From: Escherichia coli | GTDB lineage: Bacteria > Pseudomonadota > Gammaproteobacteria > Enterobacterales > Enterobacteriaceae | Strand: one strand, 5' to 3' | Length of the DNA: 64,000 nucleotides | Assembly (NCBI RefSeq): GCF_003334305.1 | Contig: NZ_QOWS01000022.1 | In this document: in pieces, positions 59,911 through 63,932 of the stretch | Position numbering within the stretch: position 1 is the stretch's first letter | How the letters are laid out: every line of letters begins with the position of its first letter | Position numbers and translations under genes: made by a program | The notes under the pieces: generated by a model | What the model was told of the DNA's origin: nothing | The model's input: only the letters and a program-made list of their open reading frames with translations | The model's database searches: none

Positions 59911-60264
59911 AACAATTTCCCTTCATTGAATGAATGGAGATTTACCCAAAAACATTTCGGGCGGGATCGAGTATACACAACTAAAGCATGCGAATTACGG
60001 CGCGGGGAATTAGAGATGGGGTTTTAGGATAATTGGAATGAATATCAAATATAAGCTACAACTTATATATAAATAACATTAAAAATCATAATGTTAAAAT
60101 AAAAGTAAAAGTAATTAATCTGAGTATTTTCCGAAATCAATCACGATTAAAAATCTATTTTAGGATTAACCTCACGGTATGATTTCCGTTAAATCACAGA
60201 CAAGGGGATTTATCTGATAAAACAATGCCGACATAACGTCGGCATTGTTATTAAGGTTTTTAAA

Positions 60265-61914
60265 TTAACCGCGCCACGCTTTATAGCGGTTAATCAGACC
60301 ATTGGTCGAGCTATCGTGGCTGCTGATTTCTTTATCATCTTTCAGCTCTGGCAGAATACGGTTTGCCAGTTGTTTACCCAGCTCCACGCCCCACTGGTCG
60401 AAGGTGAAGATGTTCAGGATCACGCCCTGAGTAAAGATTTTGTGCTCATACAGCGCAATCAACGCACCCAGGCTGAACGGAGTGATTTCACGCAGCAAGA
60501 TGGAGTTGGTCGGGCGGTTACCTTCGAACACTTTGAACGGCACCACGTAGTCAAGCGTTGCCGGATCTTTACCCTGATCACGATATTCCTGCTCAACCAC
60601 TTCGCGGGATTTACCAAACGCCAGCGCTTCGGTCTGGGCGAAGAAGTTAGACAGCAGTTTCTGGTGATGATCAGAGAGCGGGTTATGGGTGATAGCCGGA
60701 GCGATGAAATCGCACGGTACCATTTTGGTTCCCTGGTGGATCAGCTGGTAGAACGCGTGCTGACCGTTAGTGCCTGGTTCACCCCAGATAATCGGGCCAG
60801 TCTGGTAATCCACAACGTTACCGTTACGGTCAACATACTTACCGTTGGACTCCATATTGCCCTGCTGGAAGTACGCCGCGAAACGGTGCATATACTGGTC
60901 ATACGGCAGAATCGCCTCAGTTTCCGCACCAAAGAAATTGTTGTACCAGATGCCAATCAGCGCCAGCAGTACAGGCAGGTTTTTCTCGGCAGGCGTGGTG
61001 GAGAAATGCTTGTCCATCGCGTGTGCGCCAGAAAGCAGTTCAACGAAGTTATCAAAGCCGATGGAGAGAACAATCGACAGGCCAATCGCTGACCACAAAG
61101 AGTAACGGCCGCCGACCCAGTCCCAGAACTCGAACATGTTGGCAGTATCAATACCAAACTCGCCAACGGCTTTGGCATTGGTTGAGAGCGCCGCAAAGTG
61201 TTTCGCAACGTGTTTTTCATCACCTGCCGCTTTCAGGAACCAGTCACGCGCGCTATGGGCGTTGGTCATGGTTTCCTGAGTGGTGAAGGTTTTAGATGCT
61301 ACCAGGAACAGCGTGGTTTCCGGGTTTACTTTTTTCAGCACTTCCGCGATGTGAGTCCCATCGACGTTAGAAACAAAGTGCATGTTCAGGTGATTTTTGT
61401 ACGGACGCAGTGCTTCGGTCACCATGTACGGGCCGAGGTCAGAACCGCCGATCCCGATGTTCACTACGTCAGTGATTGCTTTGCCGGTATAACCCTTCCA
61501 CTCACCGGAGATAATCGCTTCCGAGAAGGTTTTCATCTTCTCCAGCACCGCGTTGACTTCCGGCATTACGTCTTTGCCATCAACCAAAATCGGGGTATTG
61601 CTACGGTTACGCAGCGCTACGTGCAGCACAGCGCGGTTTTCAGTGCGGTTGATCTTCTCGCCAGAGAACATCGACTTAATCGCGCCCGCCAGATCGCACT
61701 CTTTCGCCAGATCTTGTAATTTCGCCAGCGTCTCTTCAGTGATGCGGTTTTTGGAGTAATCCACCAGCATCTGATCGCCGAAGGTTGCGGAGAACTTAGA
61801 AAAACGATCGCCGTCTTTAGCAAAAAGATCGGCGATCGTAACGTCTTTCATTTCATCGAAGTGTTTCTGTAGTGCCTGCCAGGCAGCGGTCTGCGTTGGA
61901 TTGATGTTTTTCAT
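60265..61914 (-). CDS. pgi: Glucose-6-phosphate isomerase
   Basis: 549 aa from [15 protein letters not shown] (cat at 61912-61914); ORF track starts 2 codons earlier. Confidence 0.98.
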
Positions 61915-62149
61915 TAGCAATACTCTTCTGATTTTGAGAATTGTGACTTTGGAAGATTGTAGCGCCAGTCACAGAAAAATGTGATGGTTTTAGTGCCGTT
62001 AGCGTAATGTTGAGTGTAAACCCTTAGCGCAGTGAAGCATTTATTAGCTGAACTACTGACCGCCAGGAGTGGATGAAAAATCCGCATGACCCCGTCGTTG
62101 ACAACCGCCCCGCTCACCCTTTATTTATAAATGTACTACCTGCGCTAGC

Positions 62150-62420
62150 GCAGGCCAGAAGAGGCGCGTTGCCCAAGTAACGGTGTTGGAGGAGCCAGTC
62201 CTGTGATAACACCTGAGGGGGTGCATCGCCGAGGTGATTGAACGGCTGGCCACGTTCATCATCGGCTACAGGGGCTGAATCCCCTGGGTTGTCACCAGAA
62301 GCGTTCGCAGTCGGGCGTTTCGCAAGTGGTGGAGCACTTCTGGGTGAAAATAGTAGCGAAGTATCGCTCTGCGCCCACCCGTCTTCCGCTCTTCCCTTGT
62401 GCCAAGGCTGAAAATGGATC
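62150..62420 (+). ncRNA. Lysine riboswitch (L-box) in the lysC leader
   Basis: Long structured 5-prime leader upstream of lysC with lysine-element-like stretches (agaggcgcg..., gggggtgcatcgccgagg...) running up to the RBS aggtag; ends approximate. Confidence 0.7.
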
Positions 62421-62438
62421 CCCTGACACGAGGTAGTT

Positions 62439-63788
62439 ATGTCTGAAATTGTTGTCTCCAAATTTGGCGGTACCAGCGTAGCTGATTTTGACGCCATGAA
62501 CCGCAGCGCTGATATTGTGCTTTCTGATGCCAACGTGCGTTTAGTAGTCCTCTCGGCTTCTGCTGGTATCACTAATCTGCTGGTCGCTTTAGCGGAAGGG
62601 CTGGAACCTGGCGAGCGATTCGAAAAACTCGACGCTATTCGCAACATCCAGTTTGCCATTCTGGAACGTCTGCGTTACCCGAACGTTATCCGTGAAGAGA
62701 TTGAACGTCTGCTGGAGAACATTACTGTTCTGGCAGAAGCGGCGGCGCTGGCAACGTCTCCGGCGCTGACAGATGAGCTGGTCAGCCACGGCGAGCTGAT
62801 GTCGACCCTGCTGTTTGTCGAAATCCTGCGCGAACGCGATGTTCAGGCACAGTGGTTTGATGTACGTAAAGTGATGCGTACCAACGACCGATTTGGTCGT
62901 GCAGAGCCAGATGTAGCCGCGCTGGCGGAACTGGCCGCGCTGCAGCTGCTCCCACGCCTCAATGACGGCTTAGTGATCACCCAGGGATTTATCGGTAGCG
63001 AAAATAAAGGTCGTACAACGACGCTTGGCCGTGGAGGCAGCGATTATACGGCAGCCTTGCTGGCGGAGGCTTTACACGCATCTCGTGTTGATATCTGGAC
63101 CGACGTCCCGGGCATCTACACCACCGATCCACGCGTGGTTTCCGCAGCAAAACGCATTGATGAAATCGCGTTTGCCGAAGCGGCAGAGATGGCAACTTTT
63201 GGTGCAAAAGTACTGCATCCGGCAACGTTGCTACCCGCAGTACGCAGCGATATCCCGGTCTTTGTCGGCTCCAGCAAAGACCCACGCGCAGGTGGTACGC
63301 TGGTGTGCAATAAAACTGAAAATCCGCCGCTGTTCCGCGCGCTGGCGCTTCGTCGCAATCAGACTCTGCTCACTTTGCACAGCCTGAATATGCTGCATTC
63401 TCGCGGCTTCCTCGCGGAAGTTTTCGGCATCCTCGCGCGGCATAATATTTCGGTAGACTTAATCACCACGTCAGAAGTGAGCGTGGCATTAACCCTTGAT
63501 ACCACCGGTTCAACCTCCACTGGCGATACGTTGCTGACGCAATCTCTGCTGATGGAGCTTTCCGCACTGTGCCGGGTGGAAGTAGAAGAAGGTCTGGCGC
63601 TGGTCGCGTTGATTGGCAATGACCTGTCAAAAGCCTGCGGCGTTGGCAAAGAGGTATTCGGCGTACTGGAACCGTTCAACATTCGCATGATTTGTTACGG
63701 CGCATCCAGCCATAACCTGTGCTTCCTGGTGCCCGGCGAAGATGCCGAGCAGGTGGTGCAGAAGCTGCATTTTAATTTGTTTGAGTAA
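62439..63788 (+). CDS. lysC: Lysine-sensitive aspartokinase III
   Basis: 449-aa ORF with kinase domain and C-terminal ACT domains; ATG at 62439. Confidence 0.98.
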   Translation: MSEIVVSKFGGTSVADFDAMNRSADIVLSDANVRLVVLSASAGITNLLVALAEGLEPGERFEKLDAIRNIQFAILERLRYPNVIREEIERLLENITVLAEAAALATSPALTDELVSHGELMSTLLFVEILRERDVQAQWFDVRKVMRTNDRFGRAEPDVAALAELAALQLLPRLNDGLVITQGFIGSENKGRTTTLGRGGSDYTAALLAEALHASRVDIWTDVPGIYTTDPRVVSAAKRIDEIAFAEAAEMATFGAKVLHPATLLPAVRSDIPVFVGSSKDPRAGGTLVCNKTENPPLFRALALRRNQTLLTLHSLNMLHSRGFLAEVFGILARHNISVDLITTSEVSVALTLDTTGSTSTGDTLLTQSLLMELSALCRVEVEEGLALVALIGNDLSKACGVGKEVFGVLEPFNIRMICYGASSHNLCFLVPGEDAEQVVQKLHFNLFE

Positions 63789-63932
63789 TATTTCCCTACT
63801 GGCGTATAACGCTCACCGATTGTTATACGCCATCCTCACTGAAAACATAGATTAAATAATATCTGAAAAGCAAAATCACTCCTGTAGAACAGTATTATAA
63901 TCACCGAAAAATATCATTTAACAGGAGTGTTA

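Follow-up and report, generated by a model that had tools for sequence, protein, structure and literature searches.

The leader of lysC in Escherichia coli, at positions 62133-62438 of the 64,000-nucleotide stretch of contig NZ_QOWS01000022.1 analysed here (the window), almost certainly carries the lysine riboswitch described for E. coli lysC, a cis-acting RNA that is already known, annotated and part of the ordinary biology of this organism. Locus and sequence are the same as those of the described element (RF00168, the L box or LYS element), and the published coordinates fit base for base. The aptamer covaries among relatives, and two alternative pairings downstream of it exist in the sequence and are conserved; which helix forms in which ligand state is the part of the mechanism that we infer. 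An earlier note, made from the letters alone, had put forward the lysC leader as a lysine riboswitch controlling translation and mRNA decay, and the identity, the translational control and the decay all stand in the light of RF00168, the NCBI annotation and published work (PMC10946432), although the Rho-dependent arm of the mechanism had been omitted. The element itself is no different from the published one; what is added here is a 5' hairpin, termed P0, and a conserved box upstream of the promoter, both absent from the text of PMC10946432 and from the Rfam model.

Locus and transcription start

The stretch from 61915 to 62438 is exactly the 524-bp gap separating the divergent genes pgi and lysC, an arrangement already proposed from the sequence and now borne out by open reading frames and NCBIfam matches on opposite strands. 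The names pgi and lysC are also those given to the flanks in an annotated E. coli copy of the identical locus (L001). The features of the locus outside the riboswitch are the following.

60265-61914, minus strand: coding sequence of pgi (glucose-6-phosphate isomerase), with its ATG at 61914; NCBIfam NF001211, 909 bits (cut-off 492)
61956-61985, minus strand: pgi promoter-like candidate, -35 ATCACA, 18-nt spacer, -10 TACAAT; a consensus match only, 9/12
62073-62087, unstranded: conserved box ATGAAAAATCCGCAT (ATG-N9-CAT; T-N11-A), -60 to -46 from the lysC start
62098-62127, plus strand: lysC promoter as read from the sequence, -35 TTGACA 62098-62103, 18-nt spacer, -10 TATTTA 62122-62127
62133, plus strand: lysC +1 (inferred)
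62439-63788, plus strand: coding sequence of lysC (lysine-sensitive aspartokinase 3), with its ATG at 62439; NCBIfam NF006570, 766.7 bits (cut-off 455)

A megablast search found the gap sequence in all 5426 complete E. coli genomes, with at least 99% identity in 5421 of them, and many genomes are 100% identical to it. A 'riboswitch' feature placed by NCBI on the annotated E. coli copy covers the bases equivalent to window 62151-62347. The G+C content is 52% for the gap, 58% for the leader and 60% for the aptamer, against 51% for the whole window, and the description of the region as GC-balanced was thus roughly correct. Elsewhere in the window there are further Rfam matches at 60107-60256, 17876-18016, 10568-10638 and 50706-50776, namely STnc430, with 69 bits, just 3' of pgi, sraL with 153 bits, and a pair of naRNA4/REP-type elements. 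In Citrobacter and Enterobacter loci STnc430 adjoins pgi as well. On the other side of lysC, positions 63789-64000 are a variable accessory insertion adjoining the gene: they are unrelated to the O157:H7 reference, where yjbD comes next, 1434 of the 5426 E. coli genomes have a match to them, annotated there as a 'zeta toxin family protein', and an open reading frame that begins at 63935 runs past the window end.

Published work numbers the leader from +1 (PMC10946432). In that numbering the AUG contains G309, Rho stops transcription at G349, U354-357 and A364, nt 250-253 make up RNase E Site1, and the candidate rut site, rich in C and poor in G, is placed near nt 240. With +1 at 62133, G309 becomes the G of the AUG (62441), the downstream positions fall on G, UUUU and A, and Site1 reads UCUU. 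Since this is the only offset that places the published landmarks on matching bases, the 5' UTR should be 306 nt long, in keeping with the claim of a non-coding leader of more than 300 nt. Of the gap, therefore, only 62133-62438 is leader, the portion from 61915 to 62132 being promoter DNA that holds two promoters and the conserved box. The position of the lysC promoter agrees with this start. Its TTGACA is perfect, and blocks of TTGACA and TATTT(A/C/G)TAA are conserved 5' of the leader across the Enterobacterales; an automated promoter scan missed it because the scan demands that the -10 hexamer end in T. On the pgi side, Citrobacter and Escherichia sp. E1V33 have almost the same first ~110 nt next to that gene.

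The lysine aptamer

Lysine-riboswitch-like stretches had been noticed upstream of lysC by eye, and a scan with RF00168 over 62150-62420 had been named as the check. Such a scan (Rfam 15, gathering thresholds, whole window) gave an untruncated match to the full model, positions 1-182 of 182, at 62151-62347 on the plus strand, with a score of 99.5 bits (gathering 30) and an E value of 3.1e-25. The aptamer ends 92 nt 5' of lysC, on the same strand, and comprises two features.

62151-62347, plus strand: lysine riboswitch aptamer (RF00168), a five-way junction P1-P5, in which P1 is 62155-62161 paired with 62337-62343
62194-62250, plus strand: L2-L3 loop-loop (kissing) contact, GCCA 62194-62197 with UGGC 62247-62250 (nt 62-65 with 115-118)

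For comparative analysis, representative bacterial genomes were scanned with a degenerate DNA pattern for the LysC N-terminus, which yielded 120 Enterobacterales loci; with the E. coli leader as query, nhmmer detected a homologue of it in most of these, and 62 non-redundant leaders were aligned with the window (alignment A1, 63 sequences). When the Rfam structure was projected onto this alignment, 83.2% of cells were paired, as against 42-48% when the partners were slid by 1-3 columns. Two-sided changes were observed in 307 cells compared with 135 in shuffles, none of 500 shuffles reaching 307, and they affected 5/9 pairs of P2a, 7/8 of P2b, 8/10 of P3 and 2/5 of P4. P1 (99.8% paired) and the base of P5 (98.8% paired) are nearly invariant among the 63 leaders. 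RNAalifold, supplied with no structure, recovers the same five helices, with compensatory changes in 19 of 47 pairs.

The junction is conserved at the level of single residues. The blocks AGAGG, GCCGA, UGUCAC and GGUGGAG are invariant or nearly so in the 63 leaders and match the model consensus, and residues A30, G31, G32, G34 and C35, C97, C98, A100 and G101, G159-C163 (G159, U160, C161, A162 and C163) and G196-G199 with G202 are all either invariant or conserved in at least 90% of them. These conserved junction residues are presumably the lysine-pocket contacts of the published crystal structures. The L2-L3 loop-loop contact is the tertiary hallmark of the lysine riboswitch class. Both of its C-G pairs are invariant (63/63 leaders), while pair 65-115 alternates between A-U (19) and G-C (40), and pair 62-118 occurs as A-U, G-C and U-A as well as a wobble, giving a covariation score of 0.287 versus 0.107 in shuffles, a value that none of 500 shuffles reached. 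The contact takes the form GCCA/UGGC in Escherichia and Klebsiella and (A/G/U)CCG/CGG(U/C/A) elsewhere. Non-canonical positions of P2 in the cmscan alignment fit internal-loop motifs, the candidates being a kink-turn and a loop-E. Direct binding of L-lysine by the E. coli lysC RNA rests on published experiments as cited in PMC10946432. Among the leaders of Klebsiella and Raoultella (L116, L065, L070, L048, L120, L111), P5 is extended by ~45 nt (A1 columns 228-266) and there is a ~90-nt insertion between the C-rich tract and the Shine-Dalgarno (SD) block (A1 columns 380-470).

Alternative pairings in the expression platform

Two blocks are conserved 3' of the aptamer, CGCUCUUCCCUUGUGCCAAGGCUGA (nt 255-279) and CCCUGACACGAGGU (nt 289-302), and the spacer between them is very variable in length. 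The ribosome-binding site named earlier, aggtag, is present at 62431-62436, and the GAGG core at 62430-62433 lies 5 nt before the AUG. The platform contains the following elements.

62322-62400, plus strand: anti-P1/antisequester fold (ON), nt 190-214 (3' side of P5, and P1) with nt 244-268
62351-62371, plus strand: small platform hairpin UAG.AGCGA-AGUA-UCGCUCUG, predicted in all folds
62363-62402 (nt 231-270), plus strand: C-rich, G-poor tract, 50% C and 17% G, with the UCUU of Site1 at 62382-62385
62395-62433, plus strand: SD-sequestering hairpin (OFF), CCUUGUG 62395-62401 (nt 263-269) with CACGAGG 62427-62433

It had been suggested that the leader ends in a region able to pair with the ribosome-binding site, and the strand at 62395-62401 does so with 62427-62433, covering the GAGG and leaving the trailing UAG uncovered. 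Folded by itself, nt 255-312 adopts this sequester helix as its structure of lowest energy (-11.0 kcal/mol; duplex energy -10.4), and the helix is 95.9% paired in the 63 leaders. None of its seven pairs shows a two-sided compensatory change in those leaders, and six vary on one side, for example from U-G to C-G; the variation being all one-sided, the comparative support for this helix is conservation and not covariation, and conservation of both strands could equally be due to other constraints, such as the SD as such or the binding of Rho or of RNase E. The anti-P1 fold belongs to the unconstrained minimum-energy structure of the leader, its helices are 95.0% and 91.0% paired in the 63 leaders, and four of its pairs have two-sided changes. 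An anti-P1/antisequestering stem has been named for the E. coli lysC leader (PMC10946432). The ON and OFF helices share strands nt 205-214 and nt 262-269, and as the anti-P1 fold takes up both the P1 strand and the sequestering strand it excludes both of the OFF-state helices. The small platform hairpin is only 58% paired in the alignment because its loop varies in length. The C-rich tract, the composition of which was measured in 30-nt windows from nt 231 to 270, coincides with the region published as rut site and as target of RNase E (PMC10946432).

Energies computed for the whole leader were kept out of the evidence for the switch, as they fail to separate the ligand states convincingly. 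With the aptamer enforced, the sequester helix was not chosen as the best platform structure; predicted SD accessibility barely differs between the constrained states (0.32 vs 0.29-0.43); and the aptamer-enforced fold lies 19 kcal/mol above the anti-P1 fold in a nearest-neighbour model that leaves out tertiary contacts and ligand. In the predicted ON fold, published Site1 is part of an internal loop and is not helical.

The SD might instead be hidden by the 5' end of the mRNA, with ACUACCU at 62135-62141 pairing to AGGUAGU at 62431-62437 in place of the C-rich tract. The E. coli strands match perfectly along 7 bp, their duplex energy of -10.6 kcal/mol is as good as that of the sequester helix, the pairing appears in some constrained folds and it covers the aggtag of the earlier note exactly. 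Over the 63 leaders, however, the pairing accounts for 41% of cells, which 464 of 500 shuffles equalled or bettered and which was no better than slid controls, and nt 7-9 of the 5' strand are already taken by the conserved P0. Perfect complementarity (nt 3-9 with 299-305) is found in E. coli and in Cedecea. As a general mechanism this pairing was rejected, since it is not conserved, and it is regarded as chance or lineage-specific; that it hides the SD in place of the C-rich tract is very improbable indeed.

A genuine aptamer could also act through an intrinsic (Rho-independent) terminator in the manner of Bacillus subtilis lysC, transcription attenuation being the common mode of lysine riboswitches in Firmicutes and lysine being known to lower the level of E. 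coli lysC mRNA (PMC10946432). A terminator scan of 62348-62438, however, detected no terminator-like stem followed by a U-run on the plus strand, the sole match in the platform being on the minus strand, and an intrinsic terminator in the platform was rejected. The conserved 3' block of the platform is moreover the SD region and not a U-tract, and termination in vitro requires both Rho and NusG, single-round transcription without Rho giving only full-length product whether or not lysine is supplied (PMC10946432). A switch of this kind is scarcely credible for the locus. The aptamer family and the regulated function, aspartokinase, are common to B. subtilis lysC and E. coli lysC, but the platform of the former is an intrinsic terminator whereas the latter works by SD sequestration, RNase E and Rho (PMC10946432), and with no plus-strand terminator in the E. 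coli platform the B. subtilis mode is inapplicable.

A model of lysine control

According to published work the leader controls translation initiation and RNase E-dependent decay, this being the 'dual-acting riboswitch' of Caron et al. 2012 (as cited in PMC10946432), and a newer addition to the mechanism is a Rho arm (Ghosh et al. 2024, PMC10946432), in which Rho/NusG termination at G309 is enhanced by lysine. In the published experiments lysine stops translation, uncovers RNase E sites and lets Rho terminate, and deletion of Site1 raises RNA polymerase occupancy (PMC10946432). The elements described above can be fitted to this scheme. Transcription would proceed from the TTGACA/TATTTA promoter, starting at ~62133, and the aptamer (62151-62347) would fold as a five-helix junction braced by the L2-L3 loop-loop contact. 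Without lysine, 62322-62346, comprising the 3' strand of P1 and part of P5, would pair with the C-rich 62376-62400, so that the SD would be free and the C-rich tract double-stranded, and lysC would be both transcribed and translated. With lysine bound, P1 would form and the C-rich tract would be released, 62395-62401 would pair with 62427-62433 to hide the SD, and the exposed UCUU sites (Site1, 62382-62385, and Site2) would be open to cleavage by RNase E. The freed tract would also serve as a loading site for Rho, and Rho together with NusG would stop transcription at the G309 pause (62441); once translation has stopped, Rho would terminate at further sites in the open reading frame as well.

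The closest parallels to such a mechanism within E. coli are the thiC and ribB riboswitches, in which ligand likewise exposes a C-rich rut site within the riboswitch and in which Rho, as in lysC, terminates at or just after the start codon (PMC10946432). Their ligands, TPP and FMN, and their aptamers differ from those of lysC, and the pause at the start codon is ligand-sensitive in thiC but reportedly not in lysC (PMC10946432).

The upstream box and control at the promoter

In 36 related loci exactly 10 nt separate the box ATGAAAAATCCGCAT from the -35 hexamer 3' of it, and in one more locus 9 nt do so; these loci belong to many genera and have long and short leaders alike. It looks like a candidate transcription-factor site, and one might guess at a LysR-type regulator such as ArgP. 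On a rival reading, lysine controls lysC chiefly through a promoter-bound protein, ArgP or some other factor acting at this box, and the leader adds little. The conservation of the box 9-10 nt from the -35 hexamer in 37 loci speaks for such control, as does the retention of promoter and box in relatives that lack the aptamer, and the literature includes both promoter-level regulation of lysC (Liao and Hseu 1998, as cited in PMC10946432) and ArgP-lysine repression of lysine-pathway genes (PMC6254735). However, when the leader is fused to a foreign promoter, lacUV5, a 2- to 8.5-fold repression by lysine persists and depends on the riboswitch (PMC10946432), the aptamer is kept in 5426 of 5426 complete E. 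coli genomes, and regulatory mutations conferring AEC resistance are said to fall mainly in the lysC riboswitch (PMC6254735). It is thus very unlikely that the leader adds little; the lacUV5 fusions, the universal presence of the aptamer and the AEC mutations make promoter control an extra layer on top of the riboswitch rather than an alternative to it.

A conserved 5' hairpin

Immediately upstream of the aptamer, and outside the Rfam model, there is a further hairpin.

62139-62154 (leader nt 7-22), plus strand: P0 hairpin CCUGCG-CUAG-CGCAGG, ending one base before P1

P0 was predicted in every fold computed for the leader. On the columns of the MAFFT alignment it was only 45% paired, its 5' strand being out of register because loop lengths differ. 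It was retested on sequences anchored on the start of P1, with a shuffle control, whereupon a stem of at least 6 bp abutting P1 was found in 48 of the 63 leaders, compared with 3.8 (maximum 12) in shuffles. Between genera the stem shows compensatory changes at several of its positions, occurring as CCUGCG/CGCAGG, CUUGCAC/GUGCAAG, CUCGCGC/GCGCGAG and CUUACGC/GCGUAAG. P0 is absent where other DNA precedes P1, which is the case in Klebsiella, Raoultella, E. albertii and loci with an ERIC-like repeat. In E. albertii the promoter is further upstream, and in several species (L092, L099, L066) the ERIC-like repeat lies directly 5' of P1, in the place of P0. As to function, it may be guessed that P0 stacks on P1 and biases the switch, or that it shields the 5' end from RNase E.

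Leaders without the aptamer

A number of relatives have a gap between pgi and lysC that is ~230 nt shorter and lacks the aptamer, among them Citrobacter spp., Enterobacter, Phytobacter and the unclassified Escherichia sp. E1V33 (loci L002 3712-4024, L051 (upstream of 2142), L035, L038, L040, L084, L117 and others). RF00168 gave no match in these short syntenic lysC leaders, even at E<=1 in L002 and L035. What they are without is leader nt ~5-235; lysC still adjoins pgi, and they retain the promoter and the box as well as, further 3', the C/U-rich tract and the block of the SD hairpin (…UGCCUUUGUGCCAUGG…CCCUGACACGAGGUAG…AUG). Because distant Enterobacterales have the long form, the short form is probably derived. 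The gap of E1V33 resembles that of Citrobacter from mid-gap onward, a likeness that hints at recombination.

Two other kinds of variant were encountered. A second aspartokinase gene (…YPPSVVAKFGGTS…) is present in Citrobacter, Kluyvera, Pseudocitrobacter and Phytobacter (L003, L016, L021, L026, L032, L072, L078, L080, L104, L106, L109, L112), and the region upstream of it has weak nhmmer similarity to aptamer nt 115-200. The leaders of this gene in L003 and L016 gave no Rfam match at E<=1, and the upstream region may be a degenerate or divergent leader. In the complete genome of the blood isolate E. coli EECO1006 (NZ_CP090319.1, L122 2944-3641) an IS1 lies directly 3' of the aptamer, at leader nt ~213, and cuts it off from both the expression platform and lysC, which makes this isolate a natural uncoupling mutant.

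Significance

As a riboswitch the finding adds nothing new, the lysC element being among the best-characterised of E. coli and one that routine annotation marks. Its value is that of a positive control, in which a riboswitch was recognised from raw sequence with the right boundaries and a nearly right mechanism. The presence of a conserved P0 abutting P1, outside the family model, may be of modest use to riboswitch specialists, and the natural leaders that have a platform but no aptamer are ready controls for the platform's own role and for compensation after riboswitch loss. Whether the leader has functional parts beyond the textbook aptamer and platform, in the form of P0 together with a self-standing module of promoter and 3' platform, is a more tentative matter, and on balance such an arrangement seems rather unlikely. 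If it were true, the platform would have a lysine-independent regulatory activity of its own, and loss of the riboswitch would have recurred, or spread horizontally, inside a single bacterial family.
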